Part shown: positions 6,001 through 58,320 of the stretch, one piece after another
Layout: each line of letters begins with the position of its first letter
Position numbering within the stretch: the stretch's first letter is position 1
IMG/VR virus record: IMGVR_UViG_2974549060_000001
Coordinates: 1-64,000 of that record
DNA length: 64,000 nucleotides
Reading direction: 5' to 3' (one strand)
DNA from: a virus
Taxonomy: Duplodnaviria; Caudoviricetes
Made by a program: the position numbers and the translations under genes
The notes under the pieces: model-generated
The model's database searches: none
Seen by the model: the letters and a program-made list of their open reading frames with translations, nothing else
Told to the model about the DNA's origin: nothing

Positions 6001-9000
6001 GTTTACGCCTCATTCATGGATGCGGCAAACCCGAAAGGTACTGGCTTAACCAACACCAAACCGACGACCTTTAAGGACGTTCGTTCCGGTGCTCAGGTTA
6101 AGGAACAGTCTGCTCCGGGTGTGTCTACCAGTGCATTGGTGGTACAGGGTACTGATGCTGCGATCTCAACTCGTGTTATTGCTGAGCGTCCTGCTCAGAA
6201 TTTCCACGATGCCAACCTGTTCGGTATTAAAGATATGGTTGACGGGGCCAAAGCTCAGAACAAAGCGATGTGGGATACAGTAGTCGGTTATGACTCTCAG
6301 TTAGCTAATACCGAAGCGATGATCCGTACACTGGACGGTGCGACCAAACAAGATGGTCTGCAACCTTCCGACTGGACGAATATCGCCGGGGCACTTCGAC
6401 AACTGGCTTTCAAAGCTGAACTCACTGCGTCACCTCGTGATGCCATCTCTCCGAGTGCCGTACTTGGCCGAGTGGTCGGTGATGCGTATAACCGCGAGAT
6501 TGCCAAACTCAGCACGCTCAACGAAGTTGAATACGTGAACCAATATGGTTACGAGGGTGGTGAATATCGAGTTACTGCTGCCGACCGTAAAGCTCTGGCT
6601 GATAAGATCGCTGCTCTACGTGAGCAACGGGATAACGCCATCGTCGCTGCTGAAACCCTGGGTGATACCCTGGCTCAGAAGATGACTGACGGCACTACCC
6701 CTGCTGCCCGTAACGCAGAGAAGGTGGATGCTGCTCAACGCCGTCAGGCGATTGAACAAGCTGCTGCTGATAGCGTACCGGTAACTCGCGATGCCAAAGG
6801 CAAGAATGCTCTGGAGCGTTTCCTGTCCGAAAGCAAAGACGGCACCGTTAATGCTAAAGACCTGATGAACTTCACCGTTAAGGCTCTGGCTTCTGGCCGT
6901 ACTGATGGATCAGCACTGCAAAGCCGTATGCGCACCACTTACAGCGAACTCGCTAAAGTGCTCGCTGCCACACTGCCGGATAACCTGTCCGTGAATATTC
7001 TCTCTGCCCAACATAATCCAAAAGGGGTTATGGGTGCTGAACAGAATGCGAACTCACGAGCATGGTTCTACAGCGACGGTAAGGTAAACCAGATCAACAT
7101 TAAGATGGATGGTGCTCAGGCTCCAGGTCTGGAAGTTGTGCTGCATGAAATGCTTCACGCTGCCACTGCCCGTGCTCTGGATACTGCCCGTCGTGATCCT
7201 AAAGCTAACCCGGCCCTAACTGAAATCGTTGGCCGACTTGAATCACTGCGTAGCGAGGTAGAACAGTCTGTACAGAGCATTCCTGAGTTTGCTCCGGCAG
7301 TCCGTAACATTGATGAACTGATCTCCTGGGGTCTGACTAACCCTGCATTCCAACAACATCTTGATGGTCTGCAATCGTCTATGTATCCCCGTCAACGTGA
7401 GGGTGTACGTAATCGTCTGGGTTCCATGTTCAAAGAGTTTGCCAACACTGTACTGCGGGCGGTTTATGCCTTTACTGGCCGTAAACCAACTGCTAAGCAG
7501 ATGACAGCTATGGAAGCGTTGATCCTTGATACTGCTGACGCTCTCCAGTCCTCCACCGTTAATCCGGGGAATACCAACAGCGTTAACTTGGCAATGGCCT
7601 CATCTACCCGTGCAGCACAAACTGCCGGTCAGTACACGCATCGCCAGGTCTTTGATTCCCTGGTTTCGGCTACTGCTGGTAAACAGAACTCCACCAGCTT
7701 TACCGGGAACCTGGGTAAGATCATTGATAATGTGTCCGATAAACTGTTCAGCCAGGTATCCGGTGATCATCTGACTACTGTACCGGCAGGTCAGGGGTAT
7801 ACTCCGGGCCAGGTCTGGGCTAACGCCTTGAATACTGGTAAGGCTCCGTTCACCACTAAAGCATTGGCTGCTGGCTTCCATATGACCGACCAGGAGGCAT
7901 TCGCTATCGAGTCTATCGAGACTGCGGTTGCGGCTACTCTTAACTCTGGTTTCGGTACTGCTGTTAACCGTGAATTGCGTAAATCCTGGGAAGCTGCTCG
8001 TAAGCAGGTCACCCCAGAACAGTTCCATAATGGCAACTGGAATACGGCTACCCCGGCTGAGAAAGCAATGGCTCAGGCTAAATGGGATCATCTCTTTAAA
8101 CTGGAAGCAACCCAATCTGGACAGAACCGATACCTGTCTCAGTTTGTGGCAATGACTCTGGGCCATGAAGAAACCAGTAACCTGATGGGCTTCACTGCTA
8201 ATGTCGCTGATGCGTCAAAAGCTGTAACGCCATTTGAGAAAGCCTCTGGCTTCTTCAACCATGCTGTTAACTGGGCATCCGGCCAACTGACCCGTACCAA
8301 CGAAGGCCAACTGGTAAGCCAGAAGGCTCAGGCATTGGCTCAACAGCTCGTTGAAATCGAGTTGAAGAACCGTGATAAATCTGAGTCTGCTATTGAGCAA
8401 GCATTCACCTATGTCACTGACATGGGCGAGAAGCTCGGTAACAAAGTATGGGATGCAGCACATGCTACGGCAGACGCGAAACTGATCCGTGAGAACCCTC
8501 TCAGTATCGTTCGTGCGGCAGGTTCTATTACCCGTCTGGCTGCTAAACGTAATCTTGATGGGCTGGCAGATACCATCCGTCAGGTGCGTGACATGAGCAA
8601 TCCGAATACTGCTGATGGATGGGCTGCTCAGATCCTGGGTGATATGACTAACCCCGATAAAGTGCGTAGTGCGTTTGAGTCTCTGCAACGTCACACGAAC
8701 CTCATTGAACAACGTCGCCGTAACCTCTCCGAGATTACTCGTGGCAATGTGATGGGTACGTTTGAAGACGGTGGAAAGTATTTGACCGAAGCGGATAAAT
8801 CCGCCATGTCTTATACCTTGCTCCGTACTGAGGCACACTCTCTGTTGAATACCCGTTCACTGGCAGATGTTCAGGCACTGGTTTCCAGCCCTGCAAAACG
8901 TCGTGCTGAAATCGCTAAACTGGAGCAATCCGTGTTGGCAGATCCGAACGGCAATGATATGGTTATCCGCGCTAAAGCACTCGGCTATTACATGGTAACC

Positions 9001-11116: not shown

Positions 11117-11275
11117 ACGGTAGTGCTCTTTCAAGCCAGTGGCGATGATACCGCCAATTATCACTATCACGAGAATTAGGCCAATCCCGAATAGAACAAA
11201 TCTGGCTACCAGGGCAAGGGCAACAACCGCAATTGCGATTGCAATGCCCAGCACCCAGTAAACAAAGCTGAGCAT
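11096..11275 (-). CDS. Small hydrophobic membrane protein (59 aa; not in the ORF track)
   Basis: Manual translation MLSFVYWVLGIAIAIAVVALALVARFVLFGIGLILVIVIIGGIIATGLKEHYRNKKPLD; AAGGTGG SD-like sequence upstream. Confidence 0.65.
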   Translation of the reverse strand: MLSFVYWVLGIAIAIAVVALALVARFVLFGIGLILVIVIIGGIIATGLKEHYRNKKPLD

Positions 11276-11284
11276 TACACCACC

Positions 11285-12073
11285 TTAGCTGAACAGATCC
11301 AGCACCTTGTCATCACCTGCCGGTTTTACAAACCCATCCTCAGTCTGGGTAGTAGGCTGGCCTGCATTTGCAGTCGGAGCCGGGTCAGAAAACAGATCCA
11401 GGCTGTCAGCCGTCACCTCCGGGTGTTCAGCTTCGGTGTTACCACCAAACGGGTTCTGACCAGCAGAAGTTACGACTTCTTTGATATCTTCCGGTTCTGC
11501 GAACAGATCGGCAGCCGGTTGCTCTGGCTGAGATTCCTGTGCTGCTGGCTGCTCTACGCTGCCTGTTGGATCAGCGAACAGGTCAGTTGTTGCTGCTCCT
11601 GCTCCTGCTGCTTCCTGAGTCTCAGTCGCTGCCGACGCCGCTTTATCTGATCCCGTTTCAGGTTTGGTTTCCAGAACTTTTTCGGTTTCCGTACCTTTGG
11701 TTTCAGGCTGCTGCGCGTCCGGGCCTTTTGCTTCGGCTTCGCCAGCCTGCTGCTGTGGTTGCTGAGTTTCTGCTGCTTGTTTAGCTTTCGCTTCATCTGC
11801 TGCAATTTCCTCTTTGGTGCGACGTTTACGACGCTTTTTATCAGGAGTTGCTGCATCAGCATTACCGGTGGCCTTCGGCTCATCTTCGACTACCGGATCG
11901 GTGTCGTCATCGTCGAAAGTGCCCTGCGGAACTTCTTCGCCAACGCCAGCAACAGCTTTGATTTCACCGTTGATTGGCCCGATATGAATTTCGACTGGTG
12001 CCAGGTTAGTCTCGTGCTTCAAGCCTAACAGAACAAGGCGAAGGATATCGTCGGTGGACAGAATGATTTGCAT
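11285..12073 (-). CDS. Acidic, largely disordered protein with a basic KKRRKRRTK patch and four DLF motifs
   Basis: 262 aa, rich in A/E/P/Q/D; follows the resolvase directly. Confidence 0.8.
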   Translation of the reverse strand: MQIILSTDDILRLVLLGLKHETNLAPVEIHIGPINGEIKAVAGVGEEVPQGTFDDDDTDPVVEDEPKATGNADAATPDKKRRKRRTKEEIAADEAKAKQAAETQQPQQQAGEAEAKGPDAQQPETKGTETEKVLETKPETGSDKAASAATETQEAAGAGAATTDLFADPTGSVEQPAAQESQPEQPAADLFAEPEDIKEVVTSAGQNPFGGNTEAEHPEVTADSLDLFSDPAPTANAGQPTTQTEDGFVKPAGDDKVLDLFS

Positions 12074-12078
12074 CTGGA

Positions 12079-12642
12079 TTATTCCTTACTGGCTAACATA
12101 GCCATTGATTTAAATAGATCGGTTTCCATCGCTGCGTAGATCGCTGCAATGGCATCAGCCATATGCTCGGCAAGGCTGGCATTCACCTTACCACCGCGCA
12201 TAGGCCAGGGTGCCTCCGGGTGCTTAGCCATTGCCCAGGCAATCGCCTGAGCTTTGGTAGCTTCGCGTGTACCGGTAATTACCTTTCTGGTTTCAATGGC
12301 ACTCACTTCCACCATTGGGATCTGAGTGTTCGAAGCCAGAGACAGGATACCGATGCACACGCCATAACCGGCCATAGCACGAGCTGACTGGCTCCCGTGA
12401 GGGACTTCTGCTGCTATGAGGTCACATTGCCTCATGCGAGCGATGAAGCCCTTAGAGAGCTGTTTAGCGCGCTCTAAATCCTCAGAACTCTTTCGAGTCC
12501 CTTTGGTCTTCTCAATAACCGGCCTTATAACGTCAAGGTATAAGATCTCAACCTTTTTCACTATTGGGTTATATAACCCTTCGGCAATGCCCCAGTTACT
12601 AAACGATGGGTCACAACCCAGGATCCTTAAACCCTTAGCCAT
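12079..12642 (-). CDS. RuvC-like Holliday junction resolvase
   Basis: ILGCDPSFSNWG, AAEVP and HMADAIA acidic motifs; start trimmed to MAKGLR. Confidence 0.85.
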   Translation of the reverse strand: MAKGLRILGCDPSFSNWGIAEGLYNPIVKKVEILYLDVIRPVIEKTKGTRKSSEDLERAKQLSKGFIARMRQCDLIAAEVPHGSQSARAMAGYGVCIGILSLASNTQIPMVEVSAIETRKVITGTREATKAQAIAWAMAKHPEAPWPMRGGKVNASLAEHMADAIAAIYAAMETDLFKSMAMLASKE

Positions 12643-12996: not shown

Positions 12997-13022
12997 AAAA
13001 AAGCCCACCGAAGTGGGCTTCA
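12997..13022 (-). terminator. Intrinsic terminator (UUCG loop)
   Basis: Minus strand AAGCCCAC-TTCG-GTGGGCTTTTTT. Confidence 0.85.
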
Positions 13023-13036
13023 CTCAAGCCAGATTA

Positions 13037-13801
13037 TTACAGGAACAGATCCGACTGGCCAGCGGTAGTACCGGCAGGTTCGCCTGCACCGCCTGCGAAC
13101 GCACCACCAGGAGCACCGGAAGTACCAGCCTGGCTGACAGCTTTGAACTTGTCGTTCGGTTTACCCTGCCATTTGTCCAGCCACTCTTTGATAAAGACGG
13201 CTTCGGTTTTTTTGGCAATGATTTCACCGACAGTCATGTCGTCGCGGTCGCGGAAGAACTTATCCAGCTCATTGCTGGTACGTTTTTCGTTGGTCGGTTC
13301 GTACTGACCGGTAGACTGGTTTTTCGAGTTTTTGTTTTCGATAACTTCGAGCACACCGGCTTTGATGACTTTGCCGATCAGCGGCATCAGCATCGGTACG
13401 TCGGTAGGCACTTCTTTTTTCAGCTCGTAGTTATAGAGGTTGATGGTTTTCTGCTCGGTAAGATCCTGGAGAGTAACCAGTGGCTTACCAGCAGCTAACA
13501 GGCAGAGGCTATCCATAGACTGGAAGCCCGGCAGATATTTCAGTTCGCCGGTCTGCTTGTCTTTGTATTTGATGGAACCCTGCTTGTTTGACACGTAAGT
13601 GGTAAAGCGGTGTTTGTTGCCAGTCGCAACGTTTTTCAGCTCCAAGTTGACAGCTTTCGCGCCACCAGCAGATTTACTGAAATACGCTAACAGAATTTCG
13701 AACTGATACACGTCAGAGGTCAGGGTTTTAAAACCACCACCTACAACGTCTTTTTCTACCGCATTACCTGCATCGTACTCTGCACTATCTAAAAAGCCCA
13801 T
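13037..13801 (-). CDS. ssb: Single-stranded DNA-binding protein (N4 gp45-like)
   Basis: 254 aa; synteny after the AAA gene; LPGFQSMDSL segment; G/A-rich linker and short C-terminal tail QSDLFL. Confidence 0.8.
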   Translation of the reverse strand: MGFLDSAEYDAGNAVEKDVVGGGFKTLTSDVYQFEILLAYFSKSAGGAKAVNLELKNVATGNKHRFTTYVSNKQGSIKYKDKQTGELKYLPGFQSMDSLCLLAAGKPLVTLQDLTEQKTINLYNYELKKEVPTDVPMLMPLIGKVIKAGVLEVIENKNSKNQSTGQYEPTNEKRTSNELDKFFRDRDDMTVGEIIAKKTEAVFIKEWLDKWQGKPNDKFKAVSQAGTSGAPGGAFAGGAGEPAGTTAGQSDLFL

Positions 13802-40366: not shown

Positions 40367-41539
40367 TTAATCCTCGTCGGGCATTTTGAAATGCACGGCT
40401 TGTCCGAATGGGGGGATGAAGTTCGGATTGTTGTAAATTGCCCAGATCACTGGCTTACCAGGATTAGGGACACTATGGAGATGGGCTATATAACCATCAG
40501 TTAGGACGATGAGCCATTTTGAGCCATCTTTGGTATAAGACTGCATCAGCTCGTCGATGACTGTACCACCACCACCACCCATTTCAATTTTCAGCAGGGC
40601 TTTCAAATTACGGACACGGTTTTTGCTTACCAGCTTGTGGTCGAATTGCATAACGTCGATGTAGTCCGGGTTGAAGCCTTTCAGGACATGGTGAGTTTCA
40701 CTTACGAAGAAGTTAAACACCTTTTCCGAGACGGAACCGGATACGTCCCAACCGAAAGAGCCTGGGCCTAAACCAGGAGAATATTGGCTTGGCAAATACA
40801 TACCCATTGGTTGATAACGACGATTAGGTCTTGACCAGCTAAAGTCACCTTTAGTCATGGCAAACATCAGACGACGAAGCACACGCTGCCAGGGAATGGC
40901 AGGCTTAAGGATACCGTCGATCAGACGCTGTAAGTCCGGGCCGATATTGCTTGGCATTTTGCCAGCCATCTCTGCCATCGCCTTACCACGCATAACCAGT
41001 TCTTCGACCTGCTGTTTGATCTGCTGACGTACTTCCTGCTCTTTCGGGCCTTTCGGCTCACGTAAGTCAGGTAGGGCACATCCAGCCATAGTACCACCGC
41101 CGCCAGCACCACCATTGGCTTTGTCCTCTTCTTCCAGTAGGCGATACACCTGCATAGTTGAGAGGTTGCGATACTGGGGATCGCAGAGGCCACCGGCAGG
41201 CATCTTCATGCCTACACTGGTGAGGATAAGGTTAATTACATGGTCAGCCGCACGGTTCCAACGGTCGGGATCCATACCTTTGGCACGTTCGGTGCAGTGC
41301 TCAAATGCAATATGCAGCCCCTCATGAGCAATCAGAAATTCACGCTCATCGTTGGTCAGCTTGCCGAAGAACTCTTCGTTGTAATAGCAGTTGAGGCCAT
41401 CGGTGTACGCCGTCTGATTATCCGGGCTGTTGTCCACCAGATGTTTACTACCCATGATGATATGGGTGAAGAAGATCATTTCTTCTTTAGTCAAAAGACC
41501 AATTTTGGCCTTCGACATGAGTTTTCGGAAGTCCATCAT
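40367..41539 (-). CDS. Metallopeptidase-like plus VWA domain protein (N4 gp25-like)
   Basis: TAYTDG, LIAHEGLHI (HExxH), DVSGSV MIDAS, GGGGT, LTDG. Confidence 0.88.
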   Translation of the reverse strand: MMDFRKLMSKAKIGLLTKEEMIFFTHIIMGSKHLVDNSPDNQTAYTDGLNCYYNEEFFGKLTNDEREFLIAHEGLHIAFEHCTERAKGMDPDRWNRAADHVINLILTSVGMKMPAGGLCDPQYRNLSTMQVYRLLEEEDKANGGAGGGGTMAGCALPDLREPKGPKEQEVRQQIKQQVEELVMRGKAMAEMAGKMPSNIGPDLQRLIDGILKPAIPWQRVLRRLMFAMTKGDFSWSRPNRRYQPMGMYLPSQYSPGLGPGSFGWDVSGSVSEKVFNFFVSETHHVLKGFNPDYIDVMQFDHKLVSKNRVRNLKALLKIEMGGGGGTVIDELMQSYTKDGSKWLIVLTDGYIAHLHSVPNPGKPVIWAIYNNPNFIPPFGQAVHFKMPDED

Positions 41540-42074
41540 CGTTACCTTTCAGTAGTCGGAGGGTTTTAAGTTCGACTGCCTCTTGGGTCAGTTCTCGCCA
41601 GGGAAGCTGGCTGAGGAACCTATCCAGGAGCAGCATATCTTTTTTAATGCCTTCGCGCGTATCAACCACCATCCACTGATGAAGCATGAACATCGTTGGC
41701 CGAAGCCAGTAGTACATGTCCACCCGTGCCCGGTATAGCCCGGACTCTGGTTGCATTGGCTCTTTCGAGGCATTGATGATGCAATGCGGGATATAAGCCT
41801 CGGCCAGTTTCTCACCTGGCTTACCGGCTGTTGGTTTGATATAGCGATTAAAGAGGTAAAGGGGATTAGACTGGAGGTAGTGATCAAATGATAACTGCAT
41901 CTCGTCTTGCAGCGGCAGTATGATCCGCTTTGCCTCTTCCATGTAGAAAGAGGGAACTACCACGATTATCTCTTCGGCTTTTTCGAACTGGGAAGCCCAG
42001 TTCTGTTCGTATTGACTTTTGAAATCACGCCCTGACATGCGAGGCGAGACATTCAGCCACGGATCTTTGCTCAT
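41487..42074 (-). CDS. Hypothetical protein
   Basis: 195-aa ORF within the operon. Confidence 0.65.
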   Translation of the reverse strand: MSKDPWLNVSPRMSGRDFKSQYEQNWASQFEKAEEIIVVVPSFYMEEAKRIILPLQDEMQLSFDHYLQSNPLYLFNRYIKPTAGKPGEKLAEAYIPHCIINASKEPMQPESGLYRARVDMYYWLRPTMFMLHQWMVVDTREGIKKDMLLLDRFLSQLPWRELTQEAVELKTLRLLKGNDDGLPKTHVEGQNWSFD

Positions 42075-47837: not shown

Positions 47838-48080
47838 TTATTTAAGTTTGAAGCGGAGCGTCTGGGTGTTGTCCTGATGATTCAGTACAGATTGAATCTC
47901 GGCTAGGCCATGATCTTTCAACACCAGAACAGCATCGGCTATGTTGGTGAAATCACCGGCCAGCTCAATGATCTTAAGCCCTAAGAGCTTTTTGGTCTTG
48001 AACTCATCCAGCTTGGCCTGAGTCAGGTATATGATCTGGGTGTTTTGTGTAACATGCTGATAACCTAAGAACTGAGCCAT
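47838..48080 (-). CDS. Early small protein, RTxxLLG-motif family
   Basis: YLTQAKLDEFKTKKLLG. Confidence 0.75.
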   Translation of the reverse strand: MAQFLGYQHVTQNTQIIYLTQAKLDEFKTKKLLGLKIIELAGDFTNIADAVLVLKDHGLAEIQSVLNHQDNTQTLRFKLK

Positions 48081-48082
48081 AT

Positions 48083-48325
48083 CTACTCCCGGTACAATCG
48101 AATAAGGTTATCCTCCCCGTCCTTGTAGACAGCGACACCTACCACACCGAAGGTGGGCAGATGGACTCGCATGACTTCCTCTTGACGATGGGCCGGTGTG
48201 ATACGCACTCCCACTTCTTGTAGTCCAGCTAACAGGCTGGCTTTGGTTGTGGACACCAGGGACAGCGGGATATTCATTCTCCCGACTGGCACGTTGTCAC
48301 TAGGTAGTTTGTGTAAAAGTTCCAT
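48083..48325 (-). CDS. Hypothetical protein
   Basis: 80 aa, GAGG SD. Confidence 0.65.
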   Translation of the reverse strand: MELLHKLPSDNVPVGRMNIPLSLVSTTKASLLAGLQEVGVRITPAHRQEEVMRVHLPTFGVVGVAVYKDGEDNLIRLYRE

Positions 48326-48346
48326 AATTGATACCTCAATGAAATA

Positions 48347-48366
48347 GCCACCCTTCGGGGTGGCTG
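48347..48366. terminator. Stem-loop, probable terminator after RNAP II
   Basis: AGCCACCC-TTCG-GGGTGGCT. Confidence 0.6.
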
Positions 48367-48370
48367 GTGA

Positions 48371-48568
48371 TTATTTTGGGTACTTCGGATCATTCTCTTT
48401 AAGCCAGAGAACGTGCTTATTGTAAACGTTAACCAGACGGTTATACTCACCGCCTGTAACGATGTTGATTACGTCGATGCCACACTGATACATGTACGTG
48501 AGGTTATCGAACGCAATACGTGCTTTTCTGGCTTGACGCTTGTGCCACCAGACTTTAAGAAAGTGCAT
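48371..48568 (-). CDS. Hypothetical protein
   Basis: Start trimmed to MHFLKVWW. Confidence 0.55.
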   Translation of the reverse strand: MHFLKVWWHKRQARKARIAFDNLTYMYQCGIDVINIVTGGEYNRLVNVYNKHVLWLKENDPKYPK

Positions 48569-49835
48569 AGTTTGAGTTCCTAATTTTGTCACCCAGGTCT
48601 GGGGACAGTTTGTCGTAGACACCATCAGTGGTCTGATATAACTGGTTCATGAGCATAGCCAGCATCTCGCTATCAGCGAAGTCGGCTATGATCTCTTTGT
48701 ACCAGTAACGGGTGATATCGCAGTTGTTTGCATGGCAACCGAACGCATCATGCACCGTGATAACCGGAAACGGTTTGTAAGTCAGCATGTCGTCGGTGAT
48801 GCTTACCAGTTTGTTCAGCATCCAGTCTGGCAGCTTGTGAACGTTGTCAGCAGTCAGCAGAGGCAGCAGAGACAGGTCAGCAATTTTCGCTTTCATGCCC
48901 AGCTTCGCCAGAGTGGTGAAGTCATCTACTTCACCCAGAGCCTGCTTCTTCGTGCCGGAGGCACGCATTTGCTGAGCGCTGACCAGTATCTCACTAGCAA
49001 CGCACACAACCGCAGGATCGTAGTTGCAACGACGCTCAATGCCACGCAGGAGATAGGCATCACAGCCATGAATGGTATTAGCAACGTTGGCCCGGCCACG
49101 TTCAGTACCCTCATTCACTTTGTATTGCAGAGTGAAGGTAGCGTGGTCGAGTTCATCCACTTCAATTCTGGTTTCCTTCGTTTCCATGACCTTAATCACG
49201 GCAGTGAACCCATCCGGGAACACCAGCGTGTGATTAAGGGCGAATGGACGCCATGAACCCAGGAGTTCATCCATTAACTGGAAGGCACCAGGGGCGATAA
49301 TCATCGCTGCATTGTAGAACGTGTCCAGCATGTCACCTTCACCGAATACACGCTTTGGCACGGCCTTTGAGCCGTAGCCAGAGGTCATTACGGCTTGTTT
49401 CACGTCCTTACGTGGAACAGTGATGGTAGCGTGTCCAGACTCCAGCAGTAGCCTGTTCATCTCGGTGGTGGTGTTGCTATACGCATCCATACGCTGACGC
49501 GGATCAATCATGCCAGTGTTGTAGGCACCAGCAATGCAGCCAGTCAGGGCTGACATAATCTGGATACCAGAACAGCAGGCATCGAAGTGTACGATGTGGC
49601 CTACGGCCAGACCGCGACGAGCACGGTCAATTACCATACTGGCTTTACGGAACAGCTCTGGTTCCTCAGCTTTATCAGCCAGCAGATCCAGGTTGTCGAT
49701 GTTATCTTCAATAAACTGAATGCGAGTTTCGAACAGCTCTTTGTCCATGCCATAGTGGTTGGCAGCATCAATGCAGAGATACTCCCAGCCATTGAAACGT
49801 TGGAAGCCAGTACCGAAGTTGATAGTATGTTGCAT
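48555..49835 (-). CDS. RNA polymerase II subunit 2 (N4 gp16-like)
   Basis: FDACCSGIQIM (motif A), RKDVKQAVMTSGYG (motif B), ANTIHGCDA, TVHDAF (motif C). Confidence 0.93.
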   Translation of the reverse strand: MQHTINFGTGFQRFNGWEYLCIDAANHYGMDKELFETRIQFIEDNIDNLDLLADKAEEPELFRKASMVIDRARRGLAVGHIVHFDACCSGIQIMSALTGCIAGAYNTGMIDPRQRMDAYSNTTTEMNRLLLESGHATITVPRKDVKQAVMTSGYGSKAVPKRVFGEGDMLDTFYNAAMIIAPGAFQLMDELLGSWRPFALNHTLVFPDGFTAVIKVMETKETRIEVDELDHATFTLQYKVNEGTERGRANVANTIHGCDAYLLRGIERRCNYDPAVVCVASEILVSAQQMRASGTKKQALGEVDDFTTLAKLGMKAKIADLSLLPLLTADNVHKLPDWMLNKLVSITDDMLTYKPFPVITVHDAFGCHANNCDITRYWYKEIIADFADSEMLAMLMNQLYQTTDGVYDKLSPDLGDKIRNSNYALS

Positions 49836-49845
49836 AAGTTAATCC

Positions 49846-50508
49846 TCATTTCCTGAAATTTAACGAGAAACCGTCTAAGTGGTTTTCTGTGATGTACTTA
49901 TCACGAGCCATAGCAGCTTCGACCTCGGTACTATAACGTCCCAGGTTTTTGGCTTTGCCGTGAATTTTTATAATTGATAGCCATTTATTTGTTTGTTTAC
50001 AACGGCTTACACCAATGTATTTGGATGATGTACCCGATTTTTTACGTCGGTTACGCTGTTGCAGGTATTCTGTAACCCAGGTGCAATTTGAAGGCCCGTA
50101 GTTGCCATCAGGGTCTTTTCTCTCAATGGTTAGTACGTCGCAATAACCTGCTTGCATAGCCCAACCATAGAAAGCCTCAAAGCTATCCAACCATTCTTTG
50201 CATACAGTAACCCCTTTACCCCCATAATTGTGGTAACCACTTATATTTGGGTTACTACACCGATTGATCATACCTTTGTAGATCTTGTAAATTCGAGATG
50301 TGGACTGACCGTGTTTGGTAATAACTTCTTGGTTGTAACAACCACATGAAGTTGTTTCCCCCCTACGTAAGCTATTGAGCAGTACAATTTTTTCTTTCCC
50401 ACAATCACATTTAACCCACACTCTACGGTCTTTAGTGCAAGACTCGGCATCATCAGTAATGATTAAACGGCCATATACTTCACCCACTACATTTTTTCTT
50501 GGTTTCAT
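49846..50508 (-). CDS. HNH-AP2 homing endonuclease between the RNAP II subunits
   Basis: KCDCG..TSCGC..RC..YGGKGVTVCKEW..TIERKDPDGNYGPSNCTW..SKYIGV. Confidence 0.9.
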   Translation of the reverse strand: MKPRKNVVGEVYGRLIITDDAESCTKDRRVWVKCDCGKEKIVLLNSLRRGETTSCGCYNQEVITKHGQSTSRIYKIYKGMINRCSNPNISGYHNYGGKGVTVCKEWLDSFEAFYGWAMQAGYCDVLTIERKDPDGNYGPSNCTWVTEYLQQRNRRKKSGTSSKYIGVSRCKQTNKWLSIIKIHGKAKNLGRYSTEVEAAMARDKYITENHLDGFSLNFRK

Positions 50509-51491
50509 TTACGTTTGAACTCCTCTGGTACTCCAGTGACAACCTCCGTATCAGCTAAGTTGATCGAGGCTTTTTTGAAAGATGTCCCCTGGCAGTTAAT
50601 GTGATAACCTTGAGAGTACATTCTACCCCTTTTATCAACTTTATTCGACAAATAGAACCGGTTGCCCTGGTTCACCATGAGCGAGTAGAAGTAATAGGAC
50701 TGCTCTTTGTAAGCAGCCCAGTTATCCTTCTGCTTACGGATCATGTCGGCTACCTGCCAATCGGATAAATCCTCGTCGCTCTCAATAGAATCGAGATCGT
50801 GAGTTGGTTCCTCTTCCACTGTACATAGGAACTCCACATCCAGGGACAGAGGAACGCTATTGCGTGAATTGAGTACATCAAGGCAGATGTTTCCGTCATG
50901 ATGGTTGAACCCTCCACCCAGGATGAGCGAGTCGTTCTGGTGGGTGTAATAGGCGGTTGAACGGTTGTTCACGAGCTTCTGAGGCTCACAAACCAGTGGT
51001 GGCAAATAGCATGAATATGCAATGAAATTGCCTAACTCTTCACTAAAGGTGATGTTACTTTGAATCTGGATTGGGCTGTTACGGTGACGTTTGATGAGGT
51101 CAAACACATCGGTTTCAGCCAATACAGCCAGCACTTCGGCAATGGTCTGCACGCTATCACGCTTATCGTCGAAGCCGATGCGTGAAGCCAGTTGACCAAT
51201 GGCATTGACCAGTGGAGTCTCGGCCTGGAAGTACACGACACCCACGAATATCTCGGTGACGAGTTTTTCCAGATCCAGTTGAGCCAGATGATGTAGACGG
51301 ACAGCTTTGCTGTCGTAATACTGCTCGGCCATCCACTGTTTCAGTAGTTCCACACCCTGTGCCACTTCTGGCAGCAGATTCTCTTCACCTTCAAACAACT
51401 CCTTACGGATGTATCCGTCGATATGACGGCGATTAAACTGCCTCTCGTTTATGAGCTGTAATTCTTTAGGCGGTAACCACTTATGTTCCAT
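50505..51491 (-). CDS. RNA polymerase II subunit 1 (N4 gp15-like)
   Basis: YLPPLVCEP, LNSRNSVPLSLD, VDKRGRMYSQGYHINCQG (DxRGR motif). Confidence 0.92.
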   Translation of the reverse strand: MEHKWLPPKELQLINERQFNRRHIDGYIRKELFEGEENLLPEVAQGVELLKQWMAEQYYDSKAVRLHHLAQLDLEKLVTEIFVGVVYFQAETPLVNAIGQLASRIGFDDKRDSVQTIAEVLAVLAETDVFDLIKRHRNSPIQIQSNITFSEELGNFIAYSCYLPPLVCEPQKLVNNRSTAYYTHQNDSLILGGGFNHHDGNICLDVLNSRNSVPLSLDVEFLCTVEEEPTHDLDSIESDEDLSDWQVADMIRKQKDNWAAYKEQSYYFYSLMVNQGNRFYLSNKVDKRGRMYSQGYHINCQGTSFKKASINLADTEVVTGVPEEFKRK

Positions 51492-51497
51492 ACGTCC

Positions 51498-51917
51498 TCA
51501 CTGAGCAAAGCGAATAAAGATTTTCCATACACCACGTTTAGGGTTAACGCAGAGTGTTGTTACTACGATTCCACCGGCCATATATAAGTGGCGACGTTTG
51601 TGATCCTCCTTGATTTGGTCGGCCCAATACACTATCCCGGTAATAGTGAAGTGGTGGGGTTGAGGCATCAGTAACCACCTAGTTTTAATTTCATCCATCA
51701 GTGCCTGCGAAATCTTCAATGCCCGGTTATCACCTCTGGCTTGCAGATACTGCGGCTCAGTTACTGTTTGTAGCTCCAGCGATTCATGCAGAGCTTCTCC
51801 ATACTGTTGGGCATATCTACCCATTTGGCTTTTACCAATACGTCTACCATACCTAATCTCGTTAGCCATATCACCCCAACGCTCTGCTTCACGCTTACGA
51901 TTCTCTTTGTAGCCCAT
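51498..51917 (-). CDS. Hypothetical protein
   Basis: 139 aa, coupled. Confidence 0.6.
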   Translation of the reverse strand: MGYKENRKREAERWGDMANEIRYGRRIGKSQMGRYAQQYGEALHESLELQTVTEPQYLQARGDNRALKISQALMDEIKTRWLLMPQPHHFTITGIVYWADQIKEDHKRRHLYMAGGIVVTTLCVNPKRGVWKIFIRFAQ

Positions 51918-51926
51918 TAGTCACCC

Positions 51927-52211
51927 CTATAGTCTTAACCATGTTTGATAATCAGCTTCCGAATACTCAGTATCCACTGACTGCTTTACGGCTTTCAGTT
52001 CTTTCAACTGGGCACCACGAGTACGCTGTGGGTCAGTGTCTTCCATCAGCTCAATGTGGTCTTCACAAGCGTAATGCTTGTACGTGTCACGCGTACCCAT
52101 ACGTGGGGCATAACGTGTCATACGTGTTGCTACGCGCTTAATTCCTAATGCTTTGCAGAACTTGCAATAGGTATGGCACTTGGCCTTACTGGTTTCAGCA
52201 GACATACACAC
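51927..52211 (-). CDS. Cys/His-containing hypothetical protein
   Basis: CHTYCKFC...CEDH. Confidence 0.6.
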   Translation of the reverse strand: MCMSAETSKAKCHTYCKFCKALGIKRVATRMTRYAPRMGTRDTYKHYACEDHIELMEDTDPQRTRGAQLKELKAVKQSVDTEYSEADYQTWLRL

Positions 52212-52214
52212 CTC

Positions 52215-52246
52215 AATAAAACAGCCATCCCCGAAGGGATGGCATG
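52215..52246 (-). terminator. Intrinsic terminator (UUCG loop)
   Basis: Minus strand GCCATCCC-TTCG-GGGATGGCTGTTTT. Confidence 0.8.
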
Positions 52247-52250
52247 TGGC

Positions 52251-52547
52251 TTACGCGAGTTCGAACTTCTGACCTTCCGGCGTTGCTTCGCCATAGGACA
52301 GTACGATACGAGATGCCAGAGCTTTCAGTCGCTTTTCAACGTCTGCATCAGACTTACAGTCTTTCAGTATGTCGATGATCATGCCTTCCAGCGGGTGAGT
52401 TTCACGCAGGCCGATACCCTGACCACCCAAGCGTTTCAAGCCCTGTTTGGTCATGATGCCAATGTTCAGATAGCCCGCAACTTTGTTACGGTTAGCGTCA
52501 GTAGCAGGAGTGTTTGCAGCAGAAGAACGACGATTGAAACCAGCCAT
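52251..52547 (-). CDS. Probable N4 gp2-like ssDNA-binding RNAP II cofactor
   Basis: AGYLNIG resembles N4 gp2 (YWLNIG); low-complexity N-terminus; own hairpin promoter and terminator; upstream of RNAP II. Confidence 0.6.
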   Translation of the reverse strand: MAGFNRRSSAANTPATDANRNKVAGYLNIGIMTKQGLKRLGGQGIGLRETHPLEGMIIDILKDCKSDADVEKRLKALASRIVLSYGEATPEGQKFELA

Positions 52548-52610
52548 GATAAGTACCTCGATGAATGAGTAGAAGAATGATGGGCGATTTTGCCCTTGAT
52601 TTACCACACA

Positions 52611-52625
52611 AGGCGCTATGCGCCT
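52611..52625 (-). promoter_or_regulatory. vRNAP hairpin promoter (TAT loop)
   Basis: Template strand AGGCGC-TAT-GCGCCT; N4 spacing gives +1 at C52607. Confidence 0.7.
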
Positions 52626-52907
52626 CTAACAGATGACTAAGCAGCTCACACGAGATTGCCAGCCTGCATAAGCAACGGAACTGCTTTCGATTTGGTCGTT
52701 GAAGGCCATCAGGTCTTCGAACGCTTCACGGCCCAAAACAGAGGCAGCAACCTCCGTCTGAGTAGCTAAAGACAGGTCGGTCATGACCAGTTGGGTCAGA
52801 CCTTTACGGAACAGGAATAATGCCAGGTCACGCATTTCACCATCACGCCATGCACGAGCACACCAGCGAAGGTTTGTTTGAGCGTGGTCAATATTCATAG
52901 TCGGCAT
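52626..52907 (-). CDS. Hypothetical early protein
   Basis: 93 aa, AAGGA SD. Confidence 0.7.
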   Translation of the reverse strand: MPTMNIDHAQTNLRWCARAWRDGEMRDLALFLFRKGLTQLVMTDLSLATQTEVAASVLGREAFEDLMAFNDQIESSSVAYAGWQSRVSCLVIC

Positions 52908-52973
52908 ACAGTTTTCCTTTAGGGGTAGACGTGGACACCAGCAGCCCCGATATCCACGATAATTGTTCTATGT

Positions 52974-52990
52974 AACGCGCTATGCGCGTT
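52974..52990 (-). promoter_or_regulatory. vRNAP hairpin promoter (TAT loop)
   Basis: AACGCGC-TAT-GCGCGTT. Confidence 0.7.
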
Positions 52991-53273
52991 GGTTTTCACC
53001 AACCACGTAGAGCAGATGCACCGGTATTACTGGGTACAGCCCCAGCAAACATTTAGTCGCTAATGGGTATCTTTCATCCTTTGGAATAATGAACGTGTAG
53101 TACACGCCAGCATGTCGAAACAGGTAGGATTCATTGATGTCCATTTGAGATGGGGTGTAAGCAAACACACTGAGATCGGCAAGAATCGTGCCTTCATCAA
53201 CAGATGTTATCTGGTTTATATCCCAGTCGATTACTGCGGTTAACTCTTTGGATTTATAAGTATGTTCAGCCAT
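52980..53273 (-). CDS. Hypothetical early protein
   Basis: 97 aa, coupled. Confidence 0.65.
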   Translation of the reverse strand: MAEHTYKSKELTAVIDWDINQITSVDEGTILADLSVFAYTPSQMDINESYLFRHAGVYYTFIIPKDERYPLATKCLLGLYPVIPVHLLYVVGENQRA

Positions 53274-53578
53274 TACATGCCCTTAATTGCCACCTCCACC
53301 ATCGTTACCTCTGGCTTCTTGAGCATGTGATGGGTCACATACACCGCAAGGATAAGGAACTTGCTTTCGATACCAGGGATGGTAATGAGTTGTTGGACGG
53401 CTCCGGCCAGATTGTTCGGGCCTAAGTTGAACTTATTCAGGTTGATGGGCATAGTGCCCTTCCACTCGAATTTAGGTGTCAGCAGACGCAGTGTACGCAG
53501 TTCGTCATACTGGCTGGCAGATAGCCAGCCCAGTGACTCCCCGTCGCTCACACGAAACAGAGCGTGCTCTGTAATCAT
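53273..53578 (-). CDS. Early small protein, RTxxLLG-motif family
   Basis: WLSASQYDELRTLRLLT. Confidence 0.75.
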   Translation of the reverse strand: MITEHALFRVSDGESLGWLSASQYDELRTLRLLTPKFEWKGTMPINLNKFNLGPNNLAGAVQQLITIPGIESKFLILAVYVTHHMLKKPEVTMVEVAIKGM

Positions 53579-53898
53579 ATATACGGTTCCCCACTCGAAT
53601 CGACTGGAGGCTTATATTTCAGCCACCACTTCATCAGTGTTTTACGGTTAACAGTACGGATTGCTGCCTCTGGATCGAATACCTTCCCACGCCAATGTTC
53701 CGGGCAATCCCGGTATACTGGGACAGGTGGATTACCTGCCTCAAACCAGTAAACAATGGTTGGGAAGTCAAACTCCAGGTCAGGCATAATCAGTTGCTGG
53801 GTACGAATTTGATCGAACTCATCCTGGGTCATGGTTGTTTCAGCAATAAGCTGAATACCAGTACCAGCACGTTTAAGTACGTCACGTAGTATTATCAA
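53575..53898 (-). CDS. Early small protein, RTxxLLG-motif family
   Basis: TMTQDEFDQIRTQQLIM. Confidence 0.75.
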   Translation of the reverse strand: MIILRDVLKRAGTGIQLIAETTMTQDEFDQIRTQQLIMPDLEFDFPTIVYWFEAGNPPVPVYRDCPEHWRGKVFDPEAAIRTVNRKTLMKWWLKYKPPVDSSGEPYI

Positions 53899-54188
53899 AA
53901 TGGAATATCCGTTGTGATATTAAAATGCCACATTACTGGCACGACTTGATGCACATTGAGCTTAAGTATCTCGTCACTATCCGGGTCACAAGAACCCTCC
54001 AGCCACTGACCATTACCCAAATCCAGGTATGAAGTAATACCGTGGTCAGACTTAAAAGTATCTGCACGCATCTTCACTTTCTGGCTTTGTCCAGTCAGTA
54101 GCATTAAGGTACGAATATAATCAAGCTCGGCATCCCCCAAATGACATACCAGTCGGCTAAAGCCTATGGCACGGAGTTGATAACTCAT
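53895..54188 (-). CDS. Early small protein, RTxxLLG-motif family
   Basis: HLGDAELDYIRTLMLLTG. Confidence 0.75.
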   Translation of the reverse strand: MSYQLRAIGFSRLVCHLGDAELDYIRTLMLLTGQSQKVKMRADTFKSDHGITSYLDLGNGQWLEGSCDPDSDEILKLNVHQVVPVMWHFNITTDIPF

Positions 54189-54454
54189 CTGCGGAATCTC
54201 GCTATAAGCTCCCCATTCTTTTGGAAGTAGGGGAAGTTAATTGGCCCACTATCTAATTGAAGGAAACTACTATTTGCTGTTACCAACATATGTGGAATAG
54301 GCAATTGAGTTTTCTCAAGGATAGTGGCATCTACGATACAGTCTTCAATACCCAACAAATGCTGGGTACGAATATTATCTACCAGCTCATCGGTCACCTC
54401 GAAATAACGGTGACCATTATCGTTAACACTGATTGCACGAGCAAATTTACGCAT
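54185..54454 (-). CDS. Early small protein, RTxxLLG-motif family
   Basis: EVTDELVDNIRTQHLLG. Confidence 0.75.
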   Translation of the reverse strand: MRKFARAISVNDNGHRYFEVTDELVDNIRTQHLLGIEDCIVDATILEKTQLPIPHMLVTANSSFLQLDSGPINFPYFQKNGELIARFRR

Positions 54455-54457
54455 AAG

Positions 54458-54760
54458 CTACTCGAAGTAGATAAAGACGTTGAGGTCTTCTGAGGTGGGA
54501 CAGCTATAATCCATAACATCAGCAACAGGTACATTGAGATGGATACGGAAACCAGCATCAGGGATGTTATACATACGATGTAAATCACCCCCAAATAACG
54601 CTATGCGGTCAGTTTCCATTATTAACAATGGCAATTTAGTAAACCAATTATGGGCACCTAGTAACCGACGTGTGCGTATTTGTTTAATATCATCAGGCGT
54701 CAATGTAGCAATGAATGTATATTTGTACGCCTGATAGCAGAGATTTACTGGGTGCCCCAT
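54458..54760 (-). CDS. Early small protein, RTxxLLG-motif family
   Basis: TLTPDDIKQIRTRRLLG; start uncertain (MGHPVN). Confidence 0.7.
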   Translation of the reverse strand: MGHPVNLCYQAYKYTFIATLTPDDIKQIRTRRLLGAHNWFTKLPLLIMETDRIALFGGDLHRMYNIPDAGFRIHLNVPVADVMDYSCPTSEDLNVFIYFE

Positions 54761-55116
54761 GTCTTGTGCTCCGGTAGGCACCATGACCACGCTGAGTCAA
54801 AGTAACAATTGAATGGGGCTTCACGGAATAACGGAGCTATTTGGTTGGCTTTATATCCAGCTAGCCCGCAACCAATCTGAGTTACCTGGAACTCAAGTTC
54901 AGGATGCTCTTTGGCATACTTCACGAAGTCATCAATATGAGTCTGGATATCAGCCAGACGTAGGACTTCCATAGCCCAGCCTTTGGTGGGAATAGCGTAG
55001 CTATTACCGAAATGGCCGATGCCTTCACCCCATGCAGCACCCTCATGGAATACTGCATGTTTAGCGGCACCAGCACCGTGGATACCACGGAGATTACTTC
55101 CGAATACGAATATCAT
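54745..55116 (-). CDS. A1S_2505-like macrodomain-fold protein
   Basis: IFVFGSNLRGIHGAGAA..YAIPTK..FQVTQIGCGLAGY. Confidence 0.8.
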   Translation of the reverse strand: MIFVFGSNLRGIHGAGAAKHAVFHEGAAWGEGIGHFGNSYAIPTKGWAMEVLRLADIQTHIDDFVKYAKEHPELEFQVTQIGCGLAGYKANQIAPLFREAPFNCYFDSAWSWCLPEHKTWGTQ

Positions 55117-55496
55117 GGATCAGACCTGTTCAGTTGTTCGATCATTAAGTTCAGTGCTTTACGTTGACGGCCAACCGGCAATTCACCGTTAACACGGATG
55201 GATGCAAACCAGTTCTCACGCTTCATGATGGTGTACGTATTAGCGTCACCACCTTCACGTAACCAGTATTTTGGTGGGTCAAGGGTGAAGTTGGTAATAA
55301 CATCACCACGGCAATATTTATCCTCGTCTGCACATTCATCGAATACTTCGAGAATGGTTGAGCAGGTTGAGGGAATATTATCCTCTGGATACCACCAGCG
55401 AAATTGTCGCCAGAATGTGCGTAGTACATACGGGAACTGGTTATCTTTAATAAACCAGAGCATTAGGTACTCGAATATACGTTTTCTCATTTGCAC
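55113..55496 (-). CDS. Hypothetical early protein
   Basis: 127 aa, coupled. Confidence 0.6.
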   Translation of the reverse strand: MQMRKRIFEYLMLWFIKDNQFPYVLRTFWRQFRWWYPEDNIPSTCSTILEVFDECADEDKYCRGDVITNFTLDPPKYWLREGGDANTYTIMKRENWFASIRVNGELPVGRQRKALNLMIEQLNRSDP

Positions 55497-56143
55497 TCCA
55501 CATAAGCGAATATCACGATTTCAATGTCCAGGTCTTTACGAGCTTCGACCTGTGCATCACGGTCTTCAAGCTGAGACTTACCATAAGGTGATAACCAATA
55601 GTCAGGATCAGCTGAGTTGTACAGTCCGTCGAGTGTTCCACGACGCCACTTAATCAGATAACGATGAGCAGCAAGATGGGATTTAAAGTATTGAGCTTTA
55701 TACACATCTTCTTCGGTAAACTCTCTGGCTTCATCACCCATAGTCTTACGAGATATGAGGCGATGGGTCAGGTATTTACCGGTGGCTTTATCACGCAGGA
55801 AGAACATGCCTTTGAACGTCATGCTTGGTTTCTCAACCAGACGTAGCATGGTAATTTCCATGTCCTCACGCTGACGTGTGGGCACTGCGACTGGTGCTTC
55901 CGGGTATGTCCAGTAATACGAGCCATACTCGTCGCCATCCCAGTCTTCGCCTTTAGGCACATAGCCTTTGAGCCAACCTGTCAGGTAGATCCTGGCATGT
56001 CGCAGCTCACGGAATACACGAGGCCAGACTAAGCGTGGGTCGATGGGTTCCACATAGGAACCACCACGGCCACGGCTGGACTTGGGCATAGGCAGAAATT
56101 CATTACGTCGTTTAACGGCATACACATGCTGAGTTAACATCAG
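55487..56143 (-). CDS. Hypothetical protein with an internal tandem duplication
   Basis: RVFRELRHARIYLTGWLKG..REDMEIT versus QYFKSHLAAHRYLIKWRRG..KDLDIEIV; start probably MLTQHV. Confidence 0.7.
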   Translation of the reverse strand: MMLTQHVYAVKRRNEFLPMPKSSRGRGGSYVEPIDPRLVWPRVFRELRHARIYLTGWLKGYVPKGEDWDGDEYGSYYWTYPEAPVAVPTRQREDMEITMLRLVEKPSMTFKGMFFLRDKATGKYLTHRLISRKTMGDEAREFTEEDVYKAQYFKSHLAAHRYLIKWRRGTLDGLYNSADPDYWLSPYGKSQLEDRDAQVEARKDLDIEIVIFAYVECK

Positions 56144-56382
56144 TTCCTCCGCATCCACGATTCAACGGGTTCAATGTGGAATTGCCAGTGGTTATTACCC
56201 AGGTATTCCACGGAATAGTAATTACCCATATGGTGAGTTTGATCCTTACCCATATGGTTAATACTTACAGCCGGAGCATCAATGACATTAACACCCAATA
56301 GTTTGAGTGTACGCATTTGATCCATCATGGCTTTAGTCAGCCAGATACCTTTACCGGTCTTACGACATTTGAGCTTTTGCAT
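56140..56382 (-). CDS. Early small protein, RTxxLLG-motif family
   Basis: WLTKAMMDQMRTLKLLG. Confidence 0.75.
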   Translation of the reverse strand: MQKLKCRKTGKGIWLTKAMMDQMRTLKLLGVNVIDAPAVSINHMGKDQTHHMGNYYSVEYLGNNHWQFHIEPVESWMRRN

Positions 56383-56653
56383 AGGCTTCCTCCACTAATT
56401 TACGGAGCGATGTCATAGCAGCATTACAGTCCTCACCTGGTTTAGAGATGTGGGTAATTTCAGACGGTGTACCGTCTTCCAGAGTCAGGCCAATATCTGC
56501 ATACAGAATATGACCATCACGGCCATCGGATTCCATAGACAGCTTAACGCCTTTTTCTTTGAAATAGATTTCGTCATCAAGGTTAATATTACGCAGCTCA
56601 ATAGTTATGCGGCTACCATAAGGACGCAGGAATACCAAACATTCGATACTCAT
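56360..56653 (-). CDS. Hypothetical early protein
   Basis: 97 aa, GAGG SD. Confidence 0.7.
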   Translation of the reverse strand: MSIECLVFLRPYGSRITIELRNINLDDEIYFKEKGVKLSMESDGRDGHILYADIGLTLEDGTPSEITHISKPGEDCNAAMTSLRKLVEEAYAKAQMS

Positions 56654-56892
56654 AGGAATAACTCCTCTAAATCAGTGGATGGTTCAAACTTAAGGGATAC
56701 CATTGCAGTCATAGGCTGTACCTCTGGCTCAATACCCGATAAGACTTGTGTTCGGATTTGAGACAGTACATCTTCCCTCGTTAACTCAGTAACAAGGTCA
56801 GTGATATTTAATTCGATAGTACCGTCTTTAATATAACGGCGAAGGATGACTTCATGAACGGCCATAGGATTTAGTCCAGTTGGAAAACTCAT
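56650..56892 (-). CDS. Early small protein, RTxxLLG-motif family (motif internal)
   Basis: LTREDVLSQIRTQVLSG. Confidence 0.65.
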   Translation of the reverse strand: MSFPTGLNPMAVHEVILRRYIKDGTIELNITDLVTELTREDVLSQIRTQVLSGIEPEVQPMTAMVSLKFEPSTDLEELFL

Positions 56893-57602: not shown

Positions 57603-57740
57603 TCGTTACGCCCCTTCTGCATAGCAGTGCCGATACGGATAACCAGCACTGTTACGATTGCAGACAGAGTAGCGTAGATACCTAAGCCGATTAAGAATGT
57701 AGTCATGATTAATACCTCTGGTTTAATAGGATTCACCCGA

Positions 57741-57753
57741 CGTGCTATGCACG
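57741..57753 (-). promoter_or_regulatory. vRNAP hairpin promoter (TAT loop)
   Basis: CGTGC-TAT-GCACG; predicted +1 at C57736. Confidence 0.65.
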
Positions 57754-57768
57754 CCAGGCTTTGATTAT

Positions 57769-58269: not shown

Positions 58270-58303
58270 AGCTGTAACTCCATAGTGAATTAGATAATCA
58301 CTT

Positions 58304-58320
58304 ATAGTGCTATGCACTAT
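58304..58320 (-). promoter_or_regulatory. vRNAP hairpin promoter (TAT loop)
   Basis: ATAGTGC-TAT-GCACTAT; predicted +1 at C58301. Confidence 0.72.

Follow-up and report, generated by a model that had tools for sequence, protein, structure and literature searches.

The first 64,000 nucleotides of the IMG/VR virus record IMGVR_UViG_2974549060_000001 (the window; the full record measures 75,764 bp) carry nine small minus-strand genes in the region bounded by the end of the genome and by the genes that follow those of a two-subunit phage RNA polymerase II (RNAP II). Their products are 80 to 139 residues long and share a helix motif set in a longer conserved core, and a search of the whole genome finds exactly nine such genes. 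Judged by sequence, the window belongs to Cbunavirus, in the N4-like family Schitoviridae, as do the Pectobacterium phages CB4, CB3, Nepra, CB1 and Possum and the Kosakonia phage Kc283. The 10.5 kb around the family is 90–94% identical to the Pectobacterium phages and 83% identical to Kc283. The nine genes probably represent an old, tandemly duplicated, lineage-specific and subfunctionalised family of small single-domain early proteins. They are listed below; leave-one-out E-values come from hidden Markov model (HMM) searches in which the member itself was withheld.

56650–56892, minus strand: F9, 80 residues (71 from Met10); motif at 56734–56784, with one extra residue; the weakest member
56140–56382, minus strand: F6, 80 residues; motif at 56293–56340, beginning at residue 15; leave-one-out E 4e-11; phrog_25598
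54458–54760, minus strand: F1, 100 residues from the ATG at 54760; motif at 54656–54703; in all ten genomes compared
54185–54454, minus strand: F7, 89 residues; motif at 54350–54397
53895–54188, minus strand: F8, 97 residues; motif at 54093–54140; its start overlaps the upstream stop by 4 nt
53575–53898, minus strand: F3, 107 residues, TTG start; motif at 53785–53832; in all ten genomes compared
53273–53578, minus strand: F2, 101 residues; motif at 53477–53524; the sole confidently modelled member
51498–51917, minus strand: F5, 139 residues; motif at 51666–51713, beginning at residue 69; leave-one-out E 2e-8
47838–48080, minus strand: F4, 80 residues; motif at 47979–48026; closes the early block, downstream of the RNAP II genes; phrog_24879

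The original prediction, which had named a family of eight open reading frames (ORFs), was accurate for all eight, each lying on the minus strand with its quoted segment in place, and had missed a ninth, F5. The five consecutive genes from 53273 to 54760, described there as mostly coupled, are indeed tightly packed: their junctions measure +3, -4, -4 and -4 nt, stop and start codons overlap, and the motifs are spaced 257–308 bp apart. Across the family, the motif begins at residue 15 to 69. Two start codons deserve comment. The 54458 ORF most likely starts at the ATG at 54760 rather than at the GTG at 54790, in agreement with its orthologues and with the PHROG profile. F9, which has orthologues in CB4, Kc283 and EK8, may start at Met10, because orthologues are 71–72 residues long. 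Two further ORFs were considered for membership and rejected. The ORF at 52980–53273 is coupled to the array and is not a member by HMM, and the ORF at 41487–42074 (195 residues, with a motif-like C-terminus) scored E 1.1 against the family HMM and was unmatched in the whole-genome search.

In the eight reported ORFs, the motif takes the form h-[TS]-x3-h-D-x-h-[RK]-T-x2-L-L-[GTM]. Its predicted enrichment over shuffled ORFs was borne out among the six-frame ORFs of the window, where a 16-residue regular expression gave 7 matches against a mean of 0.000 (maximum 0) in 300 shuffles and the 9-residue motif core gave 8 against 0.32, both expressions having been derived from the same data in which they were counted. 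An independent check is provided by the leave-one-out HMM, which recovered eight of the nine members at E 4e-11 to 9e-4 (F9, at 56650–56892, was the one unrecovered) and brought up neither a non-member ORF nor any of 3,550 decoys. When whole subfamilies were left out across 13 related genomes, median scores were 13–31 bits; with additional weak members of the same gene arrays excluded, the true background is at most 6.7 bits. Moreover, the same residues are encoded by differing codons among the copies, and therefore the signal lies at the protein level and does not reflect a repeated DNA element. Together with the absence of matches in shuffles and the retention of the motif in orthologues down to about 51% identity, this refutes the proposal that the motif arose by chance or is a repeated DNA or RNA element.

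The conserved part of these proteins extends well past the motif. A family HMM, iterated on the window together with ten related loci, settled at 60 ORFs and matched no decoy. Its 51 match positions take in a beta-hairpin, the motif helix, the strand after it and a D-H turn. Aligned on the motif, the proteins have a hairpin-like segment before it and, about nine residues after it, a hydrophobic strand that ends in an acidic residue, often with a His. When subfamily profiles are aligned with one another, the motif is always in register, and some pairs align over 37–51 columns. The earlier description of a single shared helix followed by 50–80 dissimilar residues thus needs revision in one part, as the shared core spans about 50 residues, and stands in another, as the last 25–45 residues have no detectable similarity across the family.

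Residue conservation was counted in 40 non-redundant cores drawn from at least 14 subfamilies. One Thr is invariant (100%), and both the Arg/Lys that precedes it and the Leu three residues after it are present in 95%. Four positions besides these are hydrophobic in 95–100%, and positions 16, 19, 24 and 25 of the core in 97–100%; the helix opens with an N-cap residue (T, S, D or P) in 95%, and a closing G cap is found in 60%. Much of this conservation, namely that of the N-cap, the hydrophobic positions and the G cap, meets structural requirements of a helix. The invariant Thr, the Arg/Lys and the Leu are also what would be expected if the conserved helix, with or without the D-H turn, were a docking surface for one common partner while the diverged C-termini hit different targets. 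Such a role is conceivable but unlikely. It would fit a helical wheel on which the conserved positions appear to occupy about two thirds of the circumference, including an acidic/Thr/Leu stripe beside the hydrophobic face; it would also fit C-termini that are subfamily-specific and conserved, and net charges that run from -7.4 to +7.9 with no common electrostatic character, as proteins with different targets might have. However, the conserved segment is about 50 residues long, the conservation of caps and hydrophobic positions is structural in kind, and the helix is built into a compact domain in the only good model.

That model is of F2 (53273–53578), predicted by AlphaFold with 23 orthologues at a predicted local distance difference test score (pLDDT) of 89.9 and a predicted template modelling score (pTM) of 0.79. 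It is a single compact alpha+beta domain with no linker, in the order strand 1 (residues 5–9), strand 2 (15–19), motif helix (21–33), strand 3 (37–46), strand 4 (58–67), strand 5 (70–82), a short helix (83–87) and strand 6 (91–100), so that the motif helix sits between strands 2 and 3. Independent models in BFVD agree with it, that of the CB1 orthologue at a template modelling score (TM) of 0.95 and that of a protein with 22% identity at TM 0.83. The original prediction had proposed a "constant address plus variable payload" arrangement and suggested modelling the proteins. Run on F2 and F1, this check gave a split answer: the helix of F2 is integral to one compact domain, and F1 returned a model of low confidence. 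At the level of sequence, the constant N-terminal module with member-specific C-termini holds. A detachable 16-residue address does not, in view of the length of the conserved part, the position of the helix within the F2 domain and the largely structural character of the motif's conservation.

Searches with the F2 model gave no match in the PDB at E <=0.001 with Foldseek and no usable match in the ESM Atlas. The highest Z among the 48,161 chains compared by VIA-align was 3.8, well below what chance usually gives. Of the 50 rows listed there, about nine belong to phage tail-tube, tail-completion or neck proteins, with Z values of 2.5–3.7 that fall far short of typical best matches by chance; they may be coincidental or point to a very remote kinship with folds of that class.

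The nine genes are paralogues, 17–35% identical over the core within the window, and their orthologues in other phages are 51–96% identical over the full length. Within subfamilies, conservation of the C-terminal part (0.56–0.70) is on a par with that of the motif (0.51–0.91), and both halves are under purifying selection. It follows that the "variable" part varies only between paralogues. This pattern looks like old subfunctionalisation and not like a running arms race, and since each orthologous subfamily conserves its C-terminal part, each paralogue plausibly has a job of its own. A tandem origin is indicated by the five adjacent genes with a motif spacing of 257–308 bp and overlapping stop and start codons, and by a gene order kept across genomes.

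In the favoured explanation of a duplicated and subfunctionalised family, the homologous N-terminal half, made up of the beta-hairpin, the 13-residue helix from T/S N-cap to G cap and strand 3, would be the folding core. The beta-rich C-terminal half would have diverged between paralogues past recognition by sequence while remaining constant within each orthologous subfamily. All members would keep the hairpin-helix-meander architecture. Within the first minutes of infection, each paralogue would use the surface of its C-terminal sheet to bind a target of its own, a macromolecule of the host or of the phage, and so serve to take over the host, to counter its defences or to control phage transcription.

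Several observations weigh against this explanation. Beyond the core, profile-profile comparison of the subfamily alignments finds no significant similarity in the C-terminal 25–45 residues. A fold common to all members over their full length is plausible, yet it is extrapolated from one reliable model. The AlphaFold model of F1 (54458–54760), built from 20 sequences, is poor (pLDDT 44) and has a strand-helix-strand arrangement around the motif, and Foldseek against BFVD matched likely paralogues weakly (TM 0.27–0.46). Propensity-based secondary structure places several strands after the helix in most members, by a crude method that mis-assigned the helix in a control. Finally, the invariant Thr and the mid-helix Arg/Lys exceed the obvious needs of the fold, and a shared functional site is possible. 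A bolder version of that idea would join the Thr, the Arg/Lys, the Leu-Leu pair and the D-H turn into one surface, through which up to a dozen early proteins per phage might engage a single hub while presenting differing C-terminal sheets. This is a speculative proposal with rather low odds. The best lead for such a hub would be the phage RNAP II machinery, because the ancestral-looking F5 adjoins its genes. If true, a shared hub with interchangeable adaptors would be a new organising principle, undescribed for phage early proteins.

As the original prediction had anticipated, HMM searches of related phages show the family to be lineage-specific and expanded in Cbunavirus-like phages. The iterated search yields 5–10 members per genome in ten related phages of about 75 kb. 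In scans of early regions, 9–10 members turn up in the window, CB4, Kc283, EK8 and a Logan contig, and 4–7 in Enterobacter phage SABI and in JGI, ENA and IMG/VR contigs. The family HMM was unmatched in N4, Gamaleyavirus, Litunavirus, Ithacavirus, Yonginvirus and Acinetobacter phage nACB1. A profile search of 1.84 billion representatives returned ten proteins at E <=0.001, eight of them orthologues from the same group and two spurious. Word-indexed searches found about 90 proteins, and the long contigs that bear them measure 73–77 kb, with one 244-kb exception. Clustering yields at least 14 subfamilies in a gene order conserved across genomes. F1 to F3 are shared by all ten genomes compared; F4 is seen in nine, and in the tenth the locus stops before the F4 position. 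F5 to F8 are common, and F9 to F14 are sporadic. For the docking role considered above, this distribution singles out no partner, as RNAP II and the AAA+ ATPases are found throughout Schitoviridae and the family is not.

Further motif-bearing ORFs lie in the same arrays of relatives, below the family threshold, and therefore the family is larger and more fluid than the nine genes of the window. Small ORFs of this kind with no counterpart in the window are found at 8700–8990 and 3829–4104 in CB4 and at 11179–11472, 11789–12049 and 12997–13284 in JGI contig 2228664000 (L004); most of these score under the threshold.

Variation in member content also bears on whether the paralogues form a hetero-oligomer through the conserved helix, with translational coupling setting the stoichiometry. 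Five members are translationally coupled, and the helix has conserved residues on more than one face, as such an assembly would have. However, related phages differ in how many members they hold (from 5 to 10), four members lie outside the coupled array, and the F2 model is confident as a monomer, which makes a hetero-oligomer very improbable.

Gene position points in another direction, toward phage transcription. F5 has a basic, Lys/Arg-rich N-terminal extension and a net charge of +7.9, shares its operon with a gp2-like RNAP II cofactor, and is found immediately upstream of the gene for the RNAP II small subunit in every Cbunavirus-like genome having F5, among them CB4, Kc283, L003 and SABI. 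Moreover, the sole trace of the family outside the clade consists of weak matches (E 0.004–0.04) in Klebsiella Efbeekayvirus-like phages, the best of them near the RNAP II genes. F5 could on these grounds be ancestral, with the family serving RNAP II, or the single-stranded DNA of hairpin promoters, as accessory or regulatory factors. Nevertheless, a neighbouring position is weak evidence by itself, RNAP II works in N4 and other genera that lack the family, five of the nine members are net negative and two more near neutral, and structure and PDB profile searches recognised no nucleic-acid-binding fold; a general tie to transcription is decidedly unlikely. Among the Klebsiella phages, ORFs with a weak motif (…LRTQYMLG…) lie near RNAP II at 12341–12670 in P19-618, where the ORF is unannotated, and at 8369–8680 in K17alpha62. 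They may represent the single-copy ancestral state of the family.

The surrounding early block contains the following features.

50505–51491 and 48555–49835: the two subunit genes of the phage RNAP II
52251–52607: the gp2-like gene
57727–57756, minus strand: early hairpin promoter of the virion RNA polymerase (virion RNAP), identical to the one annotated in CB4; upstream of the block with seven members
52599–52628, minus strand: early hairpin promoter, with one mismatch against that annotated in CB4; it precedes the gp2-like gene, F5 and the RNAP II genes and, further on, F4

A third hairpin promoter annotated in CB4 maps to 58291–58320 with six mismatches. Lying downstream of hairpin promoters of this kind, the family members would by analogy with N4 (PMC6027278) belong to the early class that the injected virion RNAP transcribes. 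On the minus strand, the 72-nt gap at 52908–52979, between the ORFs 52980–53273 and 52626–52907, holds a GCGC-ATA-GCGC hairpin that resembles the annotated promoters (GCGC-ATA-GCGC at 52599–52628 and GTGC-ATA-GCAC at 57727–57756), and may be a further virion RNAP promoter inside the early block.

All nine members are already represented in PHROGs, each matching one entry at E 1e-25 to 1e-75 (phrog_24879, 25598, 27457, 24685, 27528, 23352, 30060, 23171 and 35035). These are nine separate families, all of "unknown function", and only 24879 and 25598 cross-match, at E 0.01 and in the motif region only. None of the nine matched Pfam (at E up to 1) or NCBIfam, PDB sequence profiles gave no match for the family, and a literature search found no description of it; a 2026 preprint on CB1 gp68 deals with a different locus. 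The earlier remark that no function has been described for the motif agrees with these searches. With the orthologous groups already catalogued, what is new is, on the sequence evidence, their union in one superfamily with a 51-position core, absent as such from PHROGs, Pfam and NCBIfam. It is a superfamily of a familiar kind, a lineage-specific expansion of paralogues among phage early genes.

Three known folds were considered and gained no support. The AbrB/SpoVT/MazE swapped hairpin has a comparable strand-strand-helix-strand-strand order and an "RRTLG"-like helix. Neither the nine members (E up to 1) nor 20 F1 sequences (E up to 5) matched Pfam SpoVT_AbrB, no AbrB or MazE chain is among the Foldseek and VIA-align matches listed (best Z 3.8), and the F2 model has six strands and a longer helix. 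For the ribbon-helix-helix fold of Arc and CopG, there is no Pfam match, and the F2 model has a hairpin before the helix, strands after it and no second long helix. An XRE-type helix-turn-helix, whose first helix resembles the motif, likewise has no Pfam or NCBIfam match, and beta strands follow the motif helix in the models.

Comparable arrangements exist in other viruses. In N4, gp1, gp2 and gp8 are small early proteins that occupy the same niche as the family, being encoded by short ORFs that lie between hairpin promoters and RNAP II genes and are transcribed by the injected virion RNAP; however, no early ORF of N4 matches the family HMM, even with E allowed up to about 3. Among large eukaryotic viruses, poxviruses and African swine fever virus carry multigene families made by tandem duplication, which are likewise arrays of diverged paralogues that differ by gain and loss from one related genome to another. 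Here, in contrast, the family makes up nine of about 100 genes of a 76-kb podophage, and its orthologous subfamilies are stable, with no rapid turnover. The T4 internal proteins and Alt bear a capsid-targeting sequence, a peptide at the very N-terminus that the prohead protease cuts off proteins packaged in the virion. It resembles the present motif as a short conserved N-terminal segment on otherwise unrelated proteins, the textbook phage example of a constant address with a variable payload. Unlike it, the motif described here begins at residues 15–69, forms a helix inside a folded domain and occurs in early, non-virion genes. Mass spectrometry of CB1 virions found the structural proteins shared with N4, three tail proteins and CB1_78 (PMC6027278).

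About one in four early genes, and about a tenth of all genes, in Cbunavirus phages belong to this one family without a recognisable fold. As these phages are under development against potato blackleg, the family leaves a sizeable share of their host-takeover programme unexplained. With nine PHROG "orphans" joined in one superfamily that has an invariant Thr, a compact, testable set of mutants is at hand, and the family offers a natural scaffold series for how small phage proteins diversify their binding surfaces.

The remaining observations concern neighbouring genes and relatives. On the minus strand at 49846–50508, between the RNAP II subunit genes, lies a gene for an HNH/AP2-type homing endonuclease (phrog_374, E 4e-65; Pfam AP2 at E 8e-5, not reaching the cut-off). 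In contrast to the window, the subunit genes adjoin in CB4 and Kc283; Gamaleyavirus UE-M6 has an HNH gene at that junction. The minus-strand gene at 54745–55116, which adjoins the array, is called a macro-domain protein or O-acetyl-ADP-ribose deacetylase (N4 gp14-like) in the annotation of relatives; its product has no Pfam match at E <=0.01 and falls in a PHROG of unknown function. The early region of contig L004 has genes at 1431–2598 and 7402–8257 with matches to Pfam DUF7740, Phage_gp49_66, Sequestin and, twice, DUF7279; nothing near the family in the window corresponds to these genes. In public sequencing runs, relatives of the stretch occur in silage, wastewater and other metagenomes, with word shares of 0.30–0.39.

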